This document shows positions 8,334 to 60,971 of a DNA stretch of 64,000 nucleotides, in pieces. Position 1 is the stretch's first letter; each line of letters begins with the position of its first letter. Under the pieces are notes generated by a model, which saw only the letters and a program-made list of their open reading frames with translations, had not been told where the DNA came from and ran no database searches. The DNA lies in assembly GCA_030603365.1 (NCBI GenBank), contig JAUVXV010000002.1:320001-384000 (forward strand), in the 5' to 3' direction. Position numbers and translations under genes: made by a program. This DNA is from Candidatus Heimdallarchaeota archaeon (lineage in GTDB: Archaea; Asgardarchaeota; Heimdallarchaeia; Heimdallarchaeales; Heimdallarchaeaceae).

Positions 8334-9065
8334 TTAACTTCCTTCCCAATCAGTTTTCAACATTTGATCTTTATCCTCTGGGACAACTGGGTCTACATAA
8401 TAAGCGATTTTTCCAGCCCATCTGACCTCTCCTGTTCTATAAATTGGATTGGATCTGATATTTCGTAAGGTTGAAACTGGGATATTGTATTTCATACTTA
8501 ATGTTTTCAATGATGAAAAGGGATTATCAAATTCTCCAAATAACCTACGGATAAGACCTCTTTTGCTTTCTTCGATCATCAAATTTCCATTTTCATCAAC
8601 AGCATAACCAAAGGGTGGTCGAGACATGACTTTCTTATCATTAATTCTTCGTAACATTCCTTTGTATCGCTTTTCACGATATTTTTCCAGTTCCATTTCC
8701 CCGAATAAATCTTTAACTCTTGCAATCGCTTTGTTATCTTCATCATCCAAACAGACAATTGATAGTTCTTTTTTCTTGAGTAGAATTCTAATATAACCTA
8801 AAACGTCAACATCCCTGGATAATCTATCTCTGGATTGACTCCATAATTCATCAAATTCATCATTTTCAGTCATCCTCAATATTTCTAGAAAGCCTTCTCT
8901 ATATTCAGGATCACTGTCTCCAGGGCAATCTTCATCTCGAACAATCTTTACAATTTCTCGATCCCCAGCTTGGTAAATTTTTGCTGAAACATCATCAATT
9001 TGTGTTTCCAATCCTGATTCTTGATCAGCAGTTGAAGTTCGAACATATACAACACAACGAATCAT
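8334..9065 (-). CDS. Serine recombinase (resolvase catalytic domain plus short recombinase domain)
   Basis: YVRTSTADQ catalytic Ser, DRLSRD, PPFGY...NPIY. Confidence 0.9.
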   Translation of the reverse strand: MIRCVVYVRTSTADQESGLETQIDDVSAKIYQAGDREIVKIVRDEDCPGDSDPEYREGFLEILRMTENDEFDELWSQSRDRLSRDVDVLGYIRILLKKKELSIVCLDDEDNKAIARVKDLFGEMELEKYREKRYKGMLRRINDKKVMSRPPFGYAVDENGNLMIEESKRGLIRRLFGEFDNPFSSLKTLSMKYNIPVSTLRNIRSNPIYRTGEVRWAGKIAYYVDPVVPEDKDQMLKTDWEGS

Positions 9066-51935: not shown

Positions 51936-53084
51936 TTGATGAGGGCATTTTTAGGAAGAGATATTTTGACAGTTTGGCAACAGGTTGAACTTAAAGACCG
52001 CCTAGTTCATTATAGAGAAATATTCCAGAGTAAAAGAATTCCTAGATATAAACTCGCAAGATTATTTTTCGTACCTTTTGATGCATACAAGGATAAAGAT
52101 GAACTGCTAAAAAAACATGAACATCATCATCTGAAATTTAAGAAATGGGTGGAAGAGAATCAGACTGTTCCTTTGGAAGAATTAGAAAAAAAAGTTTATT
52201 CTCAATACAAAGAGGAAGAACTGGAGAAGAATAATTATCTGAAACTCAAATCTGTCTTGTTGAATAATATTCTCTCTGCATGTGAATACTGCGAGAATGA
52301 GTGTAAAACAAATCGTTCAGAAGGGAAAGTAGGAAAATGTGGAGTGAATGATGAAGCTCATATAAGTTCAGCATTTATACATATGGGGGAAGAGAGCCCA
52401 ATAGTGCCTAGTGGAACAATCTTTTTTTATGGATGTACTATGGAGTGCCAATTTTGTCAGAATTGGGATATTAGTCATGAATTTAATTTAGAAAGATTCA
52501 AGGGAAGAGGCACATCAGCTGTTCAATTAGCTAACATGTTCTACTCTTTAGTAAAACAAAATGCACGTAATATAAACTTTGTAGGAGGAGAACCTACCCC
52601 TAATCTTCATATTATCTTTGAATCTCTTTTAATCGCTCAAGTAAATGTGCCTATGTTATGGAACAGTAATATGTATTTGACTGAAACAAGTATGAAAATC
52701 ATTTCCGATATATTTGATATATGGTTACCAGATATGAAGTATAGTAACAATGAGTGTGGAAATAAATATTCAAAAGCTCCAAAATATTGGGATGCCTTAA
52801 AACGGAATATGAAGATGATCGAAGAGAGAGGAAGTGGAGAATATATAATTAGACATCTTGTTATGCCAAATCATACAAAATGCTGTTCTATACCAATCTT
52901 AGACTGGGTTAATGAACATCTGAAAACACCTTTAATCAACATCATGGCTCAATATCATCCTGATTATAAAGTTCTTCAAACCAATAGGTTTCCTGAAATA
53001 AGTAGAAGAGTCTCCACTAATGAAATGCATGAAGTGAAAAGCTATGCAGATAAATTGGGAATTTATTGGAAAAGTGTCTCTTAA
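51936..53084 (+). CDS. PflX-like radical SAM protein
   Basis: CEYCENEC, HMGEE...SGTIFF.GCTMECQFCQN, GGEPTP, RHLVMP. Confidence 0.88.
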   Translation: MMRAFLGRDILTVWQQVELKDRLVHYREIFQSKRIPRYKLARLFFVPFDAYKDKDELLKKHEHHHLKFKKWVEENQTVPLEELEKKVYSQYKEEELEKNNYLKLKSVLLNNILSACEYCENECKTNRSEGKVGKCGVNDEAHISSAFIHMGEESPIVPSGTIFFYGCTMECQFCQNWDISHEFNLERFKGRGTSAVQLANMFYSLVKQNARNINFVGGEPTPNLHIIFESLLIAQVNVPMLWNSNMYLTETSMKIISDIFDIWLPDMKYSNNECGNKYSKAPKYWDALKRNMKMIEERGSGEYIIRHLVMPNHTKCCSIPILDWVNEHLKTPLINIMAQYHPDYKVLQTNRFPEISRRVSTNEMHEVKSYADKLGIYWKSVS

Positions 53085-53097
53085 AGACCTGCACTAA

Positions 53098-53586
53098 TTA
53101 CTTAATACTCATTTCCCAAAGAAGTCTAGTAGTTGTGGATCTTTCCCATTTATTTAATGCACTTCTCGCTGCTATTGTCTCTGAAAGAAATTTATGCTGG
53201 AAATCAGCAATAAAATCTATTAGTTTGTCAATTTCTGTTACTTTCTCAAGTAATGCTTCAGAAACATAGAAAGTTATAGAAAAACCAGGTTCTGCTTCCT
53301 TTTGTACAATCCCTGTTGCTTCCGCAAGAGCAAAACTTAATCGCTTTAGCAACATATCATCAAAAGGATCTCTCATTTCAAGTATCAATGAAATTAAACT
53401 TGAATTCCTAGTCTTTTCAATGAATCCATTTTTCAAAGGAAATTGTTTCAAATCCATTTCTCTACAATCTTTACAAACTACACAAGGATAGTTAATCTCT
53501 TTATGTGGGCAAATATAACGTTCTAATTTTAGTGCCTGTCTTATCTTCTCCTTATCTTCATAAAATTCATTTGAATCAGAACTCAT
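53098..53586 (-). CDS. Hypothetical protein with N-terminal Cys cluster
   Basis: CPH...PCVVCKDC. Confidence 0.65.
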   Translation of the reverse strand: MSSDSNEFYEDKEKIRQALKLERYICPHKEINYPCVVCKDCREMDLKQFPLKNGFIEKTRNSSLISLILEMRDPFDDMLLKRLSFALAEATGIVQKEAEPGFSITFYVSEALLEKVTEIDKLIDFIADFQHKFLSETIAARSALNKWERSTTTRLLWEMSIK

Positions 53587-53658
53587 TAATTAACACTAAC
53601 TTGTTATGTTTTTAATATTTCTTTTGTCCTACTCAAAAATAAAAGCAATTTCAGTAGT

Positions 53659-54114
53659 TCAAATTTCAAATACATCAGCATCTTCAACATCTATTTCTAA
53701 AGATGAATTTCTCGAATTTTTATAGGTAAAAGCAGAAATGATTGATGAAATTGTCTCTTTAAGTTTCCAGAAATATTTGTAACTTTCCACAGGTTTCTTT
53801 TCAAAGAGTGCTAAAGCATCTTTAGAGTTCATTACAGTTTCATTTAGAATGCTAGTAGCTTTGGTCTTTATTCCAGTTCCTTGTAAATTTTCTAAGAAAG
53901 TTTTTTGCCATCTCTCTGTTTTATCTTCTTTTTCCAGTATCATTTTAAATTTAATTATCAGCATTTCTAAATCTGCTCTAAATTGCCATAGTGTGTCTCC
54001 AATTTTATTAGTAGTGGTTTTAGAAATCTCTGAAGTGATTTTGTCCAATGAATTGCAAATTTGTTGGATTTCTTTCTTCAGTTCTTCCTTATTTGGTACT
54101 GGAATTACTTGCAT
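53659..54114 (-). CDS. Hypothetical helical protein
   Basis: 151-aa ORF. Confidence 0.65.
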   Translation of the reverse strand: MQVIPVPNKEELKKEIQQICNSLDKITSEISKTTTNKIGDTLWQFRADLEMLIIKFKMILEKEDKTERWQKTFLENLQGTGIKTKATSILNETVMNSKDALALFEKKPVESYKYFWKLKETISSIISAFTYKNSRNSSLEIDVEDADVFEI

Positions 54115-54180
54115 CTTGTGAAGTAGAAATGCTATTCTTTAAAAAAATGGTGTTCGGAAACAAAGTTTAAATCAAAGAAT

Positions 54181-55386
54181 TTGTTATCTCTCCTAATGTC
54201 TTTTAGGAAAAGCTTTGGCTTAGATTTTCATTTCCCTGAAACTGAAATTTACCTAGATTCCGCTACTTCGGGAAAGATGCCTGTTTCTTCAGTTGAAGTT
54301 ATGAGTAACTATTATACTGAATTAGGAGGAGGAATTAATAGAGGCACTCATAAAAAAGCTGTAAATGCTAATAGAAAACTAGAACAATCACGTTCTACAG
54401 TAGCAAACATTTTCTCAGTAAATTCCAACAATGTTTCTTTTCTTCCCTCTCGAGAAACTGCTTTGATGAACTTTCTTCTATCTGGCATTTTTTCAAAAGA
54501 TAATGAAATAATAGTTAGTTCTTTAGATGATCATTCCATACTTGCACCAGTTTTAAAACTAAGAACAGTATACGATGTGCGTTTAAACTTTCTAAACCTA
54601 CAAGACGAATCAAATCTAGTTGAAGTCATAGAAGAGAGAATTACAGCAGAAACTAAAGCGATAGTTCTTTCAGTTATGACCCTGGGAATGGGAATTAAAC
54701 GAAATTGGAGAAAGATTACAAAAATCGCTCAGGATGCAGAAATACCTTTAGTTCTAGATATAAGCAATGCTATAGGTCATATGGAATTTAATTTCAAGGA
54801 TATAACTCCAGATATCGTAGTTTCTTCTGGAAATATCGGTGCGTTAGGTCCCCAAGGTACTGCTTTTCAAATTGTAACAGAGGACATGATGAAGAAATTT
54901 GATCCCATCTTAGTTGGAGGAGGAACAGTTATGTCTCTAGATAGATCTACCTATAAATTAGCTTCTGGCATTAACAAATATGAACCAGGGACTCTCAACA
55001 TAAGTGGAATTGCAGGATTAGCTAATAGTTTACAATCTTTATCTGAGATAGGTTTTGAAAGGATTACTAAACACGAAATCGAGCTACGAGCAATGCTTGA
55101 AGATGGGTTAAGAAAGACTAACAAATTGAACCTCATCGAACATCAAGGGTTAAATTATGGCCCAATACTCTCGTTTATGAGTGATGAGATAGATTCTCAT
55201 GACATTGCTATCATTCTCGAAGATTTGGGAGATATCTATGTAAGAAGTGGGGCATTATGTTCACATTTGTTCATGGAAGAACTACAAAAAGAATCTCTTG
55301 TTCAGGTTTCTACACATCTTTATAACACTAAAGAGGATATAGAAATTTTCTTAGAAACCTTAAACTCCATAATGTCTGAAATTTAG
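54181..55386 (+). CDS. SufS/Csd-like class V aminotransferase fold lacking the PLP lysine (paralog 1; likely start ATG 54196)
   Basis: YLDSATS, NRGTH, SGNIGALGP (canonical SGHK), YEPGT, RSGALCSH. Confidence 0.85.
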   Translation: MLSLLMSFRKSFGLDFHFPETEIYLDSATSGKMPVSSVEVMSNYYTELGGGINRGTHKKAVNANRKLEQSRSTVANIFSVNSNNVSFLPSRETALMNFLLSGIFSKDNEIIVSSLDDHSILAPVLKLRTVYDVRLNFLNLQDESNLVEVIEERITAETKAIVLSVMTLGMGIKRNWRKITKIAQDAEIPLVLDISNAIGHMEFNFKDITPDIVVSSGNIGALGPQGTAFQIVTEDMMKKFDPILVGGGTVMSLDRSTYKLASGINKYEPGTLNISGIAGLANSLQSLSEIGFERITKHEIELRAMLEDGLRKTNKLNLIEHQGLNYGPILSFMSDEIDSHDIAIILEDLGDIYVRSGALCSHLFMEELQKESLVQVSTHLYNTKEDIEIFLETLNSIMSEI

Positions 55387-55503
55387 AATTAGTGGGTATC
55401 CATTTATTAGTTACTTTTACTTTCTTTCATTGTTTGAATCACATTCAAGAATATCTTTTGCTAGTTTAAATACCAAACTGCGTATAATAATTCCAGAGAG
55501 TAG

Positions 55504-57711
55504 TTGGTGGAATTTATCTCAACTGAAACTATCACTCGTACATTTCATTTAAATTCAATTGAAACAGAAGAGATATTTTGTTATAGAGTATTTGGAGATT
55601 TTAAATCTGCAGTAAATACTCTAATAAAAGGAGGAATAAACCTCAACAACGAAATTTTCAGAGAAGAGAGTTTAGTTTCAGTAAAGCGGTTCTATTCACT
55701 ATTAAGAAAAAATTCATGTATAAGTGCTAAATTGAGCAAGCTTGAAATTAAAGAACGTTTATTGAGATGTGCTGCTCAGTATGCATATTTTTCTATTCGT
55801 AACCTAAAACAAACAAGAAATTTGTGCAGTGAGATTGCACAAGTAATGAGTGAAGATTCTTCTTGGAATAAATTTCGCAGAGATTCTTGGTTCTTATGGG
55901 ATTTATCTAAAAAATCAAAAAAAAGAAGAGATAATTTGAATGTAAAATTATTAAATCAGATTAAGAACAAACATAATTCTATATATCCTGAACAAAACAG
56001 AATGTGCAATGCACACTTGATAAATAATTATTTCAGACACATTCGAAAAATTATTCTTAGTAATCTTCAAAGGAAGGATATCAAAATCAATATTGATTCA
56101 GAATATTGTATTAAAACAATTCGAGAACATTACAGTTCTGAATACATAGATACTCTGATTAGTAAGTTTAAAACTCAAATTTCAACTTTATTAACTAGAC
56201 AATTCAAGAAATACAAAAAGAATGAAATTTCTGAAAAATCAGATGGAAACAAACAATCAAACGTTCCAGTTTTAAAAACTATTTACTCAATATGTAAAAC
56301 TAAAAAGATTCATAATGTTGAAATTGAAGAATGGAAACTAAAAAAAGAGTTATGGTTGATTAGATATATCGACGAAATTAGAGATTTCTTTAAATCTGAA
56401 TGTGTTAATCAAGAAATTAACAGAGGGATAAAAAGATTACAGGAAAAACCAACAGTGTATTTCCTAGCAATGTTTTTAGAGAAAAAGATTTTCAAATTGA
56501 GAAGAAAAATTCAAGGAGAACCAGTTAGAGATTTCTATTTCTTTCTATCACAAATAATAGATTATCATCTCACTCATCTTATACTCGAAACACAACAGAT
56601 GGTTATTTTACCTAAAATACGCATGATTCTCCTTGATTTCATTCTAAAGCCACTATCTTATCTCAAAATGCCAATCTTTACAAAATCAGTAATCCCTTTA
56701 GGAATCGATGACAATCAAGTTTATACATTGGAAGAGTTACAAAGTGAAGTAAAAATCACTTTGTCCTTTTATCCAAATCAGAAAAAACATTTCAAATTAT
56801 CATCACCAGAAAGATATTTCGAATTAACTATGAATAATGCAAAACCTGCACGAGGAATTCTTTCAGCTCATGGTGGCAAGCTTCAACTTGCTATTCCGTT
56901 TACTAGACGTTTACCAGAGTTATCAAAGATAAAACCTCTTGAAAAACAAAGAATTCTAAATTGTGATCTTGGATTGAAATCTTTTGCTGTTTTGAGTATT
57001 ACAGAAAATGGTTTTGAAACACATAGAAAATTCTTGGATCAAAAACAACTAACGGGTTCAAAAAATTCATGGTTCCTAGCAAAATCATTTAGAAATAAAA
57101 ACACAAAAACACGAGAAAAACCAACTATAAATTATAAATTCAATCTTATGAAACTCCGTAAAAAAATAAATAATTTACAATCAGAACTGAAAATGATGAA
57201 AGAAGAGACGAAAAGAAGAAGATCTAAGAACAAGAATTATCCTAAGTATAAAAATACCAAACTGTACTGGTATAAAAAAAGAGAATTGAAGTCTTACTGG
57301 AACAGAATTAGGAATATTCACAAAGAATTGATACATCAAATTTCTACAAGAATAGTTGAATATGCCAACTATCATCAAGTAGATACTATACGCTTTGAAG
57401 ATCTTCGTTGGACTCAACATTCAGCTAAACATGAAGTTGGTTATTTTCTCTCTTTCTGGCAAGTACATTGGTTTTTCAGCCAGATAATAGAATACACATC
57501 ACAAATTGCTAGAAGATATATGATTAGGTCTGTTCTAACTAATCCATATAAAAGCTCACAAATTTGCTCTACTTGTGAAAAGGAAGGAAAAAGACAAAGA
57601 AAGATATTCATGTGCTCAAATGAACTGTGTGGACTAATACTTGACAGTGATTTAAATGCTGCTCGAAACTTAGGTAAAAAATCACGCAAATGTTATCCTA
57701 TTCGACTATAA
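55504..57711 (+). CDS. Large (735 aa) TnpB/Cas12f-like RuvC nuclease
   Basis: RuvC-I NCDLGLK, RuvC-II RFEDL, SSQICSTC...FMC...C zinc ribbon, RuvC-III DSDLNAARNL. Confidence 0.88.
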   Translation: MVEFISTETITRTFHLNSIETEEIFCYRVFGDFKSAVNTLIKGGINLNNEIFREESLVSVKRFYSLLRKNSCISAKLSKLEIKERLLRCAAQYAYFSIRNLKQTRNLCSEIAQVMSEDSSWNKFRRDSWFLWDLSKKSKKRRDNLNVKLLNQIKNKHNSIYPEQNRMCNAHLINNYFRHIRKIILSNLQRKDIKINIDSEYCIKTIREHYSSEYIDTLISKFKTQISTLLTRQFKKYKKNEISEKSDGNKQSNVPVLKTIYSICKTKKIHNVEIEEWKLKKELWLIRYIDEIRDFFKSECVNQEINRGIKRLQEKPTVYFLAMFLEKKIFKLRRKIQGEPVRDFYFFLSQIIDYHLTHLILETQQMVILPKIRMILLDFILKPLSYLKMPIFTKSVIPLGIDDNQVYTLEELQSEVKITLSFYPNQKKHFKLSSPERYFELTMNNAKPARGILSAHGGKLQLAIPFTRRLPELSKIKPLEKQRILNCDLGLKSFAVLSITENGFETHRKFLDQKQLTGSKNSWFLAKSFRNKNTKTREKPTINYKFNLMKLRKKINNLQSELKMMKEETKRRRSKNKNYPKYKNTKLYWYKKRELKSYWNRIRNIHKELIHQISTRIVEYANYHQVDTIRFEDLRWTQHSAKHEVGYFLSFWQVHWFFSQIIEYTSQIARRYMIRSVLTNPYKSSQICSTCEKEGKRQRKIFMCSNELCGLILDSDLNAARNLGKKSRKCYPIRL

Positions 57712-57860
57712 GTTAAATAGGAGGGGTTTCCGTTTAATCCCAAATTAAGTTGCTCAGAAGAGCAACTTTGAAAATTCGGTCACTTAAGCTTCTTTCTGGC
57801 ATAGCTTCAAGCTTCACCAAATGCCTTTCGATCATTCCGTATATATTGGTTGTACAATTG
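57712..57860 (+). ncRNA. Candidate omega/reRNA region downstream of the TnpB-like gene (boundaries uncertain)
   Basis: Perfect hairpin AAGTTGCTC-agaa-GAGCAACTT (57747-57768); GGCAT/ATGCC stem (57798-57825); position typical of TnpB guide RNAs. Confidence 0.45.
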
Positions 57861-57947
57861 TATATACAAAAGTTTCTATATCTGAAGAATGCAATAACAT
57901 TGATATTCTCAGGTTATTTTTTTCCAAAGATTAAGAAAAGATTATTC

Positions 57948-58184
57948 TTATTGTATATATTCTGTTTCTTCTTTTTCTAGAAGTAGATAAATTCTATCAA
58001 AGTTTATTTGTTCTGCAGCTGCACTTCTTTCTGTATTTTTTGTTATCTTCCAATCCTTGATTGTATATCCTTCTGGAAGTTTATCAAATGCATCTTTTAT
58101 AGCCTTATCAAGTATTTCAATTCCTTCTGAAGTAAATATCGCTGTATTTACATCTAAATATTTCAGTTCATATCTCGATCCCAT
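57948..58184 (-). CDS. Small hypothetical protein
   Basis: 78 aa, ATG start, upstream TATA-like tttaaa. Confidence 0.6.
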   Translation of the reverse strand: MGSRYELKYLDVNTAIFTSEGIEILDKAIKDAFDKLPEGYTIKDWKITKNTERSAAAEQINFDRIYLLLEKEETEYIQ

Positions 58185-58415
58185 TCAAATCAATGTAAAA
58201 CAACATAATTTCTTTAAATACTTTTTGAACAACCATTTCTTCCCAAAAAATTTCTATTGTTTGTATACTTTCTATCATTTATCTTTTTTTATTTCTATGA
58301 TTTCCTTTCTTAATTCAAGTACTTCTTCATATATTGACAACTTCATTAGCTCCACAACTTACTCTACAAAGAAAACCCTTCGTAGGTGGATATTTAAGAA
58401 TTGTTGACAAAGAAG

Positions 58416-58452
58416 TGTAATACGTCCTGTAATACACGTTCTATGCATTACA
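58416..58452. promoter_or_regulatory. TGTAATAC direct repeat plus inverted copy (GCATTACA) upstream of TATA-like box
   Basis: 58416-58423, 58428-58435, 58445-58452. Confidence 0.4.
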
Positions 58453-58489
58453 AAGGTATTTAAGATAAAAAAACTAATTATTATTTGAC

Positions 58490-58744
58490 ATGGCTAAAAA
58501 ATACAGAATTAGTGAAAAAATAAGAAAAAAGATGAGAAAGGACAAATCCTCACTCTTTCCCTTACCTTTGAAAAAGAAGGTCGAAGTAGCTTTGTGTTAC
58601 AGATGTAATAGAAACAAATCTACTAAATTGTGCCTTAATTGTAGAAAACCTATTTGTAATCCTTGTGAAACAAAAAATCCTAAAGGTTATTGCGTTCCTT
58701 GTAGAAATGAAAAATTCGGTTTTGTATCATTTACTTTTGAATAA
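58490..58744 (+). CDS. Basic B-box-like zinc-finger protein
   Basis: CYRC...CLNCRKPICNPC...CVPC. Confidence 0.7.
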   Translation: MAKKYRISEKIRKKMRKDKSSLFPLPLKKKVEVALCYRCNRNKSTKLCLNCRKPICNPCETKNPKGYCVPCRNEKFGFVSFTFE

Positions 58745-58797
58745 AGATTTGATGAATTGTTCCGCGTAGAGATAATTCAAATAGTTCTATATTATGT

Positions 58798-59007
58798 TTA
58801 TATTTTCTTATTTCTTGATCTACGCTCTATGATGATAAGTAACAGACCTATTGCAAGAAATCCAATTGCTGCAGGTTGAATCCACATTGCCATCGATCCT
58901 CCTGAAAAATCTTTTACAAACCAAATTATAGTAAAAACTATACCGATGATTAAAACTATCGGACCAATCAAAATTCTAAAAGTTATTTTTTCTAATAAAC
59001 TCATCAC
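58798..59007 (-). CDS. Small two-TM membrane protein
   Basis: Two hydrophobic helices; upstream ggaggt RBS. Confidence 0.7.
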   Translation of the reverse strand: MMSLLEKITFRILIGPIVLIIGIVFTIIWFVKDFSGGSMAMWIQPAAIGFLAIGLLLIIIERRSRNKKI

Positions 59008-59185
59008 GATTTACCTCCCTCCATTCTGTGAGAGAGTACAGGATTTTTCTCACATTTTTAAAAAGTAACCGATTATCTGTAGTAAAACTATTTTCTTTTT
59101 TTACCATTTTACGACCAAACCGAAATCTAAACAATTCAGATAAAAACTAAGAATTAACTAACAATCAAAGAAGGATGAGATCTTA

Positions 59186-60475
59186 ATGAATAAAAACATA
59201 GTATATGGAAGCACATTGATAGTTGTTTTTTTAAGTGCAGGAATACTTACTGGTTATTTTATTCCGCAAAATAATCAGGCACAATATGATACACTACTAT
59301 CAGAATTTCAAGATTTGAATGAGGTATATAATGCTCTTTTAGAGGATTACAATACTCTACTAGGGAATTATACTGAAATAAAAGAGAAATGCGATATAAT
59401 AACTGGAGAATACGATTCTTTGAATGAAACCTACTACAACCTGTTAGAAGAGTATACTTTGTTGAATGAAACCTACAATGAATTGTTGGTAGATTATAAT
59501 ACCTTTGTAGAATCTTTCAACACATTGCAGATAGCTTATGATCAACTAAATGATTTATATTCACAACTTCTGATTGATTATGCTGTTTTTGAAAATGAAT
59601 ATAATGCTTTACTCCAGAATTATGATTTGTTGACAGCATGGATCAGAGGAATGACTTTACCTGCTCAGTACATGGTTTTTGCTGAGGCTGTTAGAAGATA
59701 CTACTTTGAAGATTTTTATGTTAAAGATACTTGGGCTACGGGAAATGAAACAGGATATTTTGCAGAATATGCACTATTCAGTCGTGATATAGTTTTGCAC
59801 GATTCTGATTTGTCATTGAAAGGAGAATTATTTGCTGAAGTATCAAATGCTCTTTCTGATTGTTTGATATATGGGAATGAAACTGAAGGCTTAGCTTGGA
59901 TGTGTATGATTGGCGTGTTTTATCCTTGGCTTCCTAATTGGAGTGGATATTATTCGTCTGGAAATGAACTAACTGATATTGATACAATAGTTCAGTGGTG
60001 CATTGATGAGATCGACTACGAATATGATACAACTATAACATATGGACAAGAACTTTATTTTTGGGATTATGTCAAGTTTCCAGTCGAAACAGCTTTCAGA
60101 ACAATGGGGGATTGTGAAGACCAAGCTCTATTCTGTGCAGCTTATCTAGAATCTTGTGGATTTCAAACTGCACTAGCATTATTTCATGATGCTGAAAATC
60201 CTATTAGTCCTGATGGTTTTTATCATGCAACTTTGTTAGTACATATAGAAGACCTAGCAAACTTTCAGTTTTGGCATCCATTTTGTCCTTTGTGGAGTCT
60301 AAGTGACATAGATCCATATGAAGGATATACTTGGGTATGGTTAGATTCTACTTGGGATGTCTCGTTTCCGTCAAAACCTGGATGGATGCAATACTACCTT
60401 GATAATGGAATAAATGATGACGATCTTACAATAGTACTATGTGACTTAAATGGAGCTACTAGCTATGCTCCTTAG
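59186..60475 (+). CDS. Membrane-anchored coiled-coil stalk plus transglutaminase-like (Cys-His-Asp) domain
   Basis: N-terminal TM, YxxLxxx heptads, GDCEDQA, FYHA, WLDST. Confidence 0.8.
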   Translation: MNKNIVYGSTLIVVFLSAGILTGYFIPQNNQAQYDTLLSEFQDLNEVYNALLEDYNTLLGNYTEIKEKCDIITGEYDSLNETYYNLLEEYTLLNETYNELLVDYNTFVESFNTLQIAYDQLNDLYSQLLIDYAVFENEYNALLQNYDLLTAWIRGMTLPAQYMVFAEAVRRYYFEDFYVKDTWATGNETGYFAEYALFSRDIVLHDSDLSLKGELFAEVSNALSDCLIYGNETEGLAWMCMIGVFYPWLPNWSGYYSSGNELTDIDTIVQWCIDEIDYEYDTTITYGQELYFWDYVKFPVETAFRTMGDCEDQALFCAAYLESCGFQTALALFHDAENPISPDGFYHATLLVHIEDLANFQFWHPFCPLWSLSDIDPYEGYTWVWLDSTWDVSFPSKPGWMQYYLDNGINDDDLTIVLCDLNGATSYAP

Positions 60476-60641
60476 CAATTTTTTTTCCTCTTAATTAATT
60501 ATACTTATACGTAAGCAATCTGCTTACAGAGATTTAAACCTCGAGCAGTAAGAAGTTTGTTTGTGATCTTACATTAGTCGTGGAGAAATGGCTTTAAACT
60601 TATGTTTAATGATTCGTATGGCTTTTTTGTTTCTTATATTA

Positions 60642-60783
60642 TGTCTCACCCCTCACTGTTTTTCAACTGTTTAACCCTGCTTTTTCTGGGAAGATTTTCC
60701 TGCTGATCCAGACCACAGAAAGTTCTTGTGCAGAGGAAAGGAAAGGAAGGGTTGAGACGAGAGAAGAGAGAAGGGGTGATACA
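60642..60783 (+). ncRNA. ~140-nt long-stem structured element (ncRNA or MITE-like)
   Basis: TGTCTCACCCCT/AGGGGTGATACA terminal stem (11/12), inner stems with G-U pairs on + strand, two apical hairpins. Confidence 0.5.
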
Positions 60784-60971
60784 CACTAGTATAGATCTTA
60801 CAGAAATTTCTTTCGTTTCCGAAGATAGATATTTATTAAAGAGTAACCATAAAAAAAATGGAAGTGCCTTCCGATCATTCCCAACTAGTATATTGTGAGT
60901 AAATATAGAAACTTTTTGATTTTAGAACAAGTAAAGTTTTAATACAGAATAAATAATAGAAAAACGAAATT

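Follow-up and report, generated by a model that had tools for sequence, protein, structure and literature searches.

A size-expanded TnpB/omega-RNA element of probable IS607 type from Asgard archaea

We describe a discrete insertion of 2,383 base pairs (bp) that carries a tnpB-like gene of 735 codons in a 64,000-nucleotide (nt) stretch of a Candidatus Heimdallarchaeota archaeon genome (GenBank assembly GCA_030603365.1, contig JAUVXV010000002.1, positions 320,001 to 384,000; hereafter the window, whose own numbering is used throughout). The element is a size-expanded IS607 TnpB/omega-RNA system found so far only in Asgard archaea. In our view, 55398–57780 most probably stems from an Asgard-specific IS607 lineage as a solo-tnpB derivative whose nuclease and omega-RNA module are structurally intact. 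This assignment is carried by the insertion boundaries, a family link to serine TnpA transposases, conserved catalytic residues and a covarying RNA structure. An earlier interpretation based on the letters alone (the sequence-only reading) had proposed an oversized, stand-alone and possibly domesticated TnpB/Cas12-like nuclease at this locus. The parts of the element are listed below; identifiers such as G023, C51, L002 and P0001 are our own for genomes, contigs, loci and proteins.

55394..55397, + strand: GGGT, left junction and last host bases; predicted target-adjacent motif (TAM)/IS607 target motif, from empty sites L023–L025 and three other family insertions
55398..55503, + strand: left end and 5' leader, delimited by the empty sites; TTACTTT tandem repeat, hairpin 55434–55448 and TATA-like box
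55504..57711, + strand: tnpB-like gene, 735 amino acids (aa), from open reading frame (ORF), alignment and AlphaFold2 model
57696..57780, + strand: omega-RNA (right-end element RNA, reRNA) scaffold, 3' part, predicted from covariation and a covariance model
57696–57722, + strand: predicted scaffold hairpin across the stop codon
57724–57741, + strand: predicted scaffold hairpin with CCG(T) in its loop (CCG at 57730–57732)
57747–57768, + strand: 9-bp hairpin, conserved with compensatory changes
57777–57779, + strand: CGG, predicted pseudoknot partner of the CCG loop in hairpin 57724–57741; right end at T57780
57781..57800, + strand: predicted guide position, native host sequence; identical or nearly so in empty sites L023–L025, right after ..GGT

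Insertion boundaries

The sequence-only reading had suggested looking for empty sites in relatives, and a BLAST search with the flanks located them in three genomes of the same genus (G023, G020 and G016), each with a first SufS-like gene, a spacer of ~110 nt and a second SufS-like gene. These sites (L023, L024 and L025) link the equivalent of 55397 straight to 57781 and so delimit the element. Base by base, the relatives read stop codon, ..(G/A/C)GGT and then CAC(C/T)TAAGCTTCTTTCTGGCA; the window reads ..GTGGGT (55392–55397), 2,383 bp closing in ..TTCGGT, and then CACTTAAGCTTCTTTCTGGCA from 57781. The sole ambiguity in the boundaries is the GGT common to both junctions. On the host side of the left junction lies the SufS-like gene, with the element starting 11 nt past its stop codon.

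Three more insertions in the family were recovered together with their empty sites:

L002 insertion: empty sites in G010, G012, G009 and G024
L006 insertion: empty sites in G006 and G003
L005 insertion: empty sites in G005, G013, G008 and the window's own genome

All four independent insertions (window, L002, L006 and L005) follow GGGT, and their right ends read CGGT, TGGT, CGGT and CGGT, respectively. IS607 elements are reported to recombine at a GG dinucleotide, to prefer (G)GG or TGGG and to produce no target duplication (PMC6188088; 10.1101/2023.11.20.567912), while the TnpB of ISXfa1 uses the TAM GGG and leaves the element uncut because its intact right end carries CGG (10.1101/2023.08.09.552727). 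The Asgard insertions match both the GG core and the GGG target rule. Judged from these junctions, the elements appear to share the published sequence logic of IS607, plus an extra conserved T.

Within the left end, an archaeal TATA-like box (TTTAAATA, 55465–55472) is the only upstream block kept among four homologues. The small hairpin at 55434–55448, pointed out in the sequence-only reading, is present in the window and is not conserved in the homologues.

An enlarged TnpB protein

The tnpB-like gene is open for all 735 codons on the + strand, as had been claimed, and translation could start equally well from the GTG at 55507. The three RuvC residues (D488 in NCDLG, E632 in RFEDL and D716 in DSDLNAA) and the four zinc-finger cysteines (C688, C691, C704 and C709) are invariant in 33 aligned family members, so the D-E-D triad and zinc ribbon recognized in the sequence-only reading are real and conserved. 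With this triad intact and a length about twice that usual for TnpB, the protein also answers to the description of an oversized TnpB/Cas12-like nuclease. Its sole Pfam domain is the Cas12f1-like TNB zinc finger (PF07282, residues 658–723, 46 bits versus a cut-off of 26).

An AlphaFold2 model built with the family alignment reached a mean predicted local distance difference test score (pLDDT) of 86.7. In the predicted layout, a WED strand (residues 7–18) is followed by an all-helical REC lobe (~28–381), WED beta-strands (396–469) and a RuvC domain into which long helices and the zinc finger are inserted, in the order RuvC-I D488, RuvC-II E632, TNB 688–709 and RuvC-III D716. The best match in the PDB was a Cas12f (8dzj, Z 16.9, 353 residues aligned), and the model also superposed on ISFba1 TnpB (8iaz, Z 15.2), Fanzor2 (9b0l, Z 14.5) and ISDra2 TnpB (8h1j, Z 12.6); larger Cas12 proteins superpose over 400–440 residues. 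The WED-RuvC-TNB core is thus shared with ISDra2 and ISFba1 TnpB and with Cas12f, yet these cover only about half of the window protein. The nuclease appears to be a structurally intact TnpB/Cas12-type RuvC enzyme, and the window copy is presumably active.

The REC lobe modelled alone gave a pLDDT of 89.9 and a predicted template modelling score (pTM) of 0.82. A wide structural search with the lone lobe returned nothing above Z 6.6, its top matches being ~80 residues of the REC helices of Cas-lambda and Fanzor2, and an ESM Atlas feature search returned only unnamed clusters or clusters with few shared features. Given a confident helical fold with no match above that level, we interpret the extra ~350 aa as an enlarged, lineage-specific REC lobe, which accounts for the length of ~735 aa in place of ~350–450 aa. 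The lobe is common to autonomous and solo members of the family, whose full-length alignments span 95–98% of the query.

A conserved RNA scaffold predicted at the 3' end

The region coding for the scaffold comprises the 3' end of the tnpB-like gene and 69 nt past its stop codon. Aligning the 3' flanks of homologues, a step that the sequence-only reading had proposed, placed the predicted scaffold/guide boundary at 57780/57781. In four homologues at separate loci (45–48% protein identity), a conserved block begins at the stop codon and extends to ..TTTGAAAA(N2-3)GGT, after which similarity ends; the block stops at 57780, the same point as the right end of the insertion. Across 14 loci, with protein identities down to 27%, the non-coding tail always closes in ..[CT]GGT (mostly ACGGT), 19–104 nt past the stop codon, and is followed by unrelated sequence. 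One genome (G141) holds two full copies that are 87% identical and diverge exactly after GTGACGGT.

At the DNA level, covariation supports the predicted fold. In a five-sequence alignment of 29 pairs, 92% of cells are paired and 11 pairs have changed on both sides; none of 500 shuffles reached the observed covariation, and slid partners pair at 38–52%. The perfect 9-bp hairpin at 57747–57768 noticed in the sequence-only reading is among the conserved stems, with compensatory changes. Family-wide, the pseudoknot arms covary as CCATGT/ACATGG, CCGTAT/ATACGG, CCGTTTTT/AAAAACGG, ACCGTAA/TTACGGT, CCGTTAC/GTAACGG and CCGTATC/GATACGG; a pseudoknot between a stem-loop and guide-flanking bases is the core of the TnpB reRNA structure (Yoon et al.). 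Searching the genus with a covariance model of the scaffold gave one match per genome, always beside a tnpB-like gene or a remnant and never on its own, with the highest score (101.9 bits) for the window copy.

The structured 3' region had been drawn as far as 57860. Its structure is borne out and its extent is not, since conservation across homologues stops at 57780. The second stem (57798–57825) and the TTCAA/TTCAC motifs (57806–57817) are present as sequence; they lie in host spacer outside the element and occur in the empty sites of three relatives. The sequence at the predicted guide position is local host flank, which fits a TnpB guide, and differs in every copy. A 17/20 guide-like match elsewhere in the genome (C11:52263), which falls in apparent coding sequence and is preceded by CTGT and not by GGGT, was judged to be due to chance.

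An Asgard family linked to serine transposases

A word-indexed search returned ~20 clusters of 560–820 aa with whole-length matches, the closest being 44–48% identical. The relatives span 27–48% identity and ~650–830 aa and were found only in Asgard archaea; all that are named belong to Heimdall-, Hod-, Hermod- or Promethearchaeota. These names, together with an ARPC4 homologue about 2 kb from the element (53098–53586, – strand; Pfam PF05856, 32 bits), agree with the Asgard-like host that had been supposed; ARPC4, a subunit of the ARP2/3 complex, is a eukaryotic signature protein. At E<1e-30, 63 representatives came out of an exhaustive search that used no profile. Some measure 1,000–1,890 aa, share the C-terminal half only and lack other Pfam domains. 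In two such loci (L062 and L063; proteins P0055, 1356 aa, and P0074, 1890 aa), only the RuvC half is held in common, and the 3' motif ..CTGTGGAT replaces ..ACGGT. Published full text on Asgard archaea together with TnpB, Fanzor or IS607 yielded no description of the window TnpB family.

A search of 400 Asgard species genomes, scoring no more than two candidates in each, gave matches at E≤1e-20 in 25 genomes from 14 of the 85 genera, with one or two matches apiece. Within the window's own genus, matches occur in five of 24 other genomes and are broken in two. One of the broken copies (G003) keeps residues 2–73 and 623–735 and contains a stop codon, and the other (G001) is an N-terminal fragment with a stop. 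In the G003 remnant (C51:28776–29369; L057 ~1777–2370) the scaffold is recognizable to the covariance model at 70.9 bits, and the ..CGGT terminus has been lost. The family is therefore mobile, as seen from its empty sites, its differing loci and its remnants.

In seven of ~20 contexts (L027, L028, L029, L070, L071, L080 and L081), an ORF with a MerR helix-turn-helix (HTH) and a Resolvase domain lies directly upstream of the tnpB-like gene, which is the architecture of the IS607 serine TnpA. No Y1 transposase was found in the window's genome, and none of the four solo copies has a tnpA remnant in its left end; the left ends measure 63–265 nt and are mutually unrelated in sequence and length. 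Since the window element lacks the TnpA that is present upstream of seven relatives, we class it as a non-autonomous derivative and not as a complete IS607.

Three IS607-like autonomous units in the window's own genome, G000 (C16:51328–53708, C16:152797–155368 and C14:340884–343454; L048, L049 and L050) pair a MerR-HTH/resolvase TnpA with a TnpB-like protein of 642–676 aa that is marginally similar to P0001. In L049, the only copy compared, RuvC-III reads ..HKNAALN and has no Asp at the usual position. These three large TnpB-like genes were considered as kin of the window TnpB and set aside as a different, very distant lineage. In the window itself, a resolvase-family serine recombinase ORF lies at 8646–9053 (– strand), in a frame of 258 aa, and has no gene with a TNB domain next to it.

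Proposed mechanism and alternative explanations

The mechanism that we propose is modelled on ISXfa1 and on the IStron of C. botulinum (CboIStron). Transcription passing the right end would produce an RNA carrying ~16–20 nt of host flank (57781 onward) as guide, and TnpB loaded with it would cut the locus where the element has left or never entered, a site that reads GGGT followed by the guide match. The occupied site, which reads CGGT, would be spared, and recombinational repair would restore the element, amounting to homing and retention. In IS607, homing is driven by TnpB after scarless excision (10.1101/2023.11.20.567912). RNA production, guide length, TAM, cleavage and homing in the Asgard element would each follow the pattern of these models. 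Transposition would need a serine TnpA supplied in trans, and with no cognate TnpA evident the window copy may now be immobile.

Several observations weigh against an intact solo-tnpB derivative of an IS607 lineage. The element contains no tnpA, nor is there a tnpA remnant in its left end. Other elements account for all five serine recombinases of the genome, which leaves mobilization in trans hypothetical; three of these recombinases adjoin the 642–676-aa TnpB-like proteins, which barely match the window TnpB. Only one copy is present in the window's genome, nothing near-identical to it is known elsewhere and the best protein identity is 48%. With the NCBIfam model guided_TnpB (NF040570) the protein reaches 68.4 bits, the cut-off being 100, and aligns over residues 535–725 only; the model does not cover its enlarged N-terminal half. 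The pseudoknot of the window copy has just 3 bp. Lastly, in three of the four solo copies the left end opens with bases that repeat the right flank, at the guide position, as detailed in the next section; the simple IS607 model, for which no target duplication is reported, does not account for them.

The main alternative is a functionless, decaying IS607 relic, in which the ORF is still open and no productive RNA-protein complex forms, so that the element neither moves nor homes. The missing cognate TnpA, the unconserved left end, the weak pseudoknot and the remnants in relatives, which show that the family decays, all fit this explanation. Against it stand a 735-codon frame without a stop, every invariant catalytic and zinc residue, three intact hairpins with the top covariance-model score and the retained promoter box, and we regard a relic as unlikely.

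Still less probable, and poorly supported, is a domesticated (exapted) RNA-guided nuclease or regulator with a fixed guide, akin to TldR or other immobilized TnpBs. The single copy, the lack of a transposase and the intact ORF with its own TATA-like promoter would suit domestication, and most TnpB clusters look immobile according to Altae-Tran et al. The sequence-only reading had raised this possibility, which the results do not support. Three congeners lack the discrete 2.4-kb insertion, and the gene with it, at the orthologous locus; other copies occupy unrelated loci with empty sites of their own; only five of 24 congeners carry the element, some copies are decayed, and among more distant members there are complete elements of the IS607 type that include a serine TnpA. 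In addition, the guide-position sequence is merely local flank, no conserved neighbouring gene was seen, and the catalytic site is intact, unlike that of most exapted regulators. Membership of an IS607 TnpB lineage with mobile copies had been named in advance as speaking against an expanded, domesticated nuclease, and the family is largely such a lineage, though its copy number is low. Since the gene is carried on a mobile-element insertion, with nuclease and scaffold intact, we read it as a passenger of the transposon rather than as a gene that the host has domesticated.

An orphan type V CRISPR effector, that is, a Cas12 variant whose array is elsewhere or lost, is likewise poorly supported and extremely improbable. 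In its favour, the protein has a size in the Cas12 range, matches Cas12f best in structure and aligns with larger Cas12 proteins over 400–440 residues. Against it, there is no array in 53000–60500 or in the homologue contexts examined. No cas1 adjoins the gene, and the only Cas1 signal of the genome is a distant, sub-threshold fragment of 19 bits. The 3' scaffold with a guide position in the flank and the association with TnpA are features of a transposon.

Repeats at the left junctions

The repeats of the right flank at the left ends of the solo copies are as follows:

L002: AATTT, 5 nt
L006: CTAACAT, 7 nt
L005: ~11 nt (one mismatch, one gap of 1 nt)
Window copy: none; only the shared GGT

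As a background, at 275 GGGT sites at least five leading matches occur at ~0.007 and at least seven at ~0.004, counts that include the sites themselves. We also considered whether the left flank resembles the right end, as an attB-like half-site would, and found no similarity above background. Elsewhere in the family, a 5'-truncated copy without tnpA (G140 C237; L072, reverse strand) is bordered by a direct repeat of its right flank of 35–100 nt, whose left unit directly follows ..GGAGT and whose right unit directly follows ..ACGGT.

The left-border repeats may be footprints of RNA-guided insertion or of imprecise RNA-guided homing, an explanation that we hold to be doubtful. By one route, an omega-RNA made from the excised circle would use left-end bases as its guide and steer integration to look-alike sites. 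By another, TnpB would cut the empty site ~20 nt into the target, and sloppy repair would then copy in a 5'-truncated, tnpA-less element with the target bases retained. By either route, if true, the nuclease itself would shape where and how the transposon inserts, yielding solo tnpB copies. A preference of the recombinase for look-alike sites is another possible cause.

Comparison with known systems

The window element resembles the IS607 TnpB/reRNA systems of ISXfa1 and the C. botulinum IStron in the serine MerR-HTH and resolvase TnpA upstream of its relatives, the GGG-type insertion motif with CGG/TGG at the right end, a predicted guide from the flank just beyond that end, a 3' scaffold closing in a pseudoknot with guide-adjacent bases, and a canonical RuvC triad and zinc finger. 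It differs in protein size (~735 aa, family ~650–830 aa, versus ~350–450 aa), in its family members, so far found only in Asgard archaea, in the extra T of the terminal motif (..CGGT; target GGGT), in the missing tnpA of the window copy and in the 5–11-nt repeats of the right flank at left junctions, which are unreported for IS607. It is further distinguished from Cas12f by the lack of a CRISPR array and from IS605 by the lack of a Y1 transposase.

With Fanzor and pro-Fanzor proteins the window TnpB shares an IS607 lineage, an enlarged N-terminal region and a host close to eukaryotes, as well as the superposition on Fanzor2. The signatures of that clade are a RuvC-I DPG motif and a RuvC-II glutamate shifted C-terminally (Yoon et al. 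2023). In contrast, RuvC-I of the window protein reads CDLG, and the glutamate stands at the canonical FEDL, invariant in the family. The TnpBs associated with aCas1 (Cas1H-Asgard-1/-2) also have Asgard hosts, and their tnpB genes have a downstream variable region that starts after a single conserved T (Altae-Tran et al. 2023); variable sequence likewise follows a conserved T here, past ..CGGT. However, the GTTCACTCA-type motif past the variable region is not conserved in the window family, the GCTTCACC of the window being host spacer, and no Cas1 gene was found beside family members in the ~20 contexts examined, where the association is with serine TnpA. Judged by gene context, this speaks against placing the window TnpB among the Asgard TnpB groups that are linked to aCas1.

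Neighbouring genes and a second insertion

Around the element lie the two class-V aminotransferase (SufS-like) genes, radical-SAM genes and the ARPC4 homologue. As the sequence-only reading had stated, no tnpA, cas1 or CRISPR array occurs within ~5 kb of the tnpB-like gene, and a repeat search of 53000–60500 showed no array, terminal inverted repeats or second copy. An Rfam scan of 53000–60000 (E≤1) left the 3' region blank and returned two sub-threshold small nucleolar RNA-like matches, attributed to chance. One further feature borders the element:

57781..57838, strand not assigned: host intergenic spacer between the two SufS-like genes, 84–90% identical in three element-free relatives

This spacer, which resumes at 60862–60960, is 84–90% identical across species compared with 70–77% for the flanking coding sequence. 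Its conservation suggests a candidate regulatory or RNA element; Rfam gave no match there. It is interrupted at 57839–60861 by a second, unrelated insertion of ~3 kb relative to the same three congeners (G023, G020 and G016), so that both insertions landed within the conserved spacer. The second insertion is bordered by a direct repeat of ~22 nt (57817–57838 and 60860–60881, ..TGCCTT(T/C)CGATCATTCC), and its cargo consists of small ORFs and a transglutaminase-like gene (59186–60475) with several paralogues in G013; no integrase was seen in it. A 20-nt recurrence upstream of the second SufS-like gene belongs to this direct repeat; it was considered as a match to the guide and rejected, its start lying 38 nt beyond the predicted guide position.

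Implications

REC growth is commonly treated as a step on the way from TnpB to Cas12. The Asgard family indicates that TnpB can double in size through a large REC lobe, yet stay a transposon passenger without a CRISPR array. IS607 is also the transposon family thought to have carried TnpB to eukaryotes as Fanzor; since the Fanzor-clade signatures are lacking here, the enlargement appears to be a parallel expansion and not a missing link. The four clean pairs of insertion and empty site provide a testable predicted TAM (GGGT), a scaffold/guide boundary and native targets, and with these at hand the protein would be an easy candidate for biochemistry and possibly for editing at moderate temperature. 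The repeats at the left junctions, for their part, present a small and concrete anomaly in the biology of IS607.

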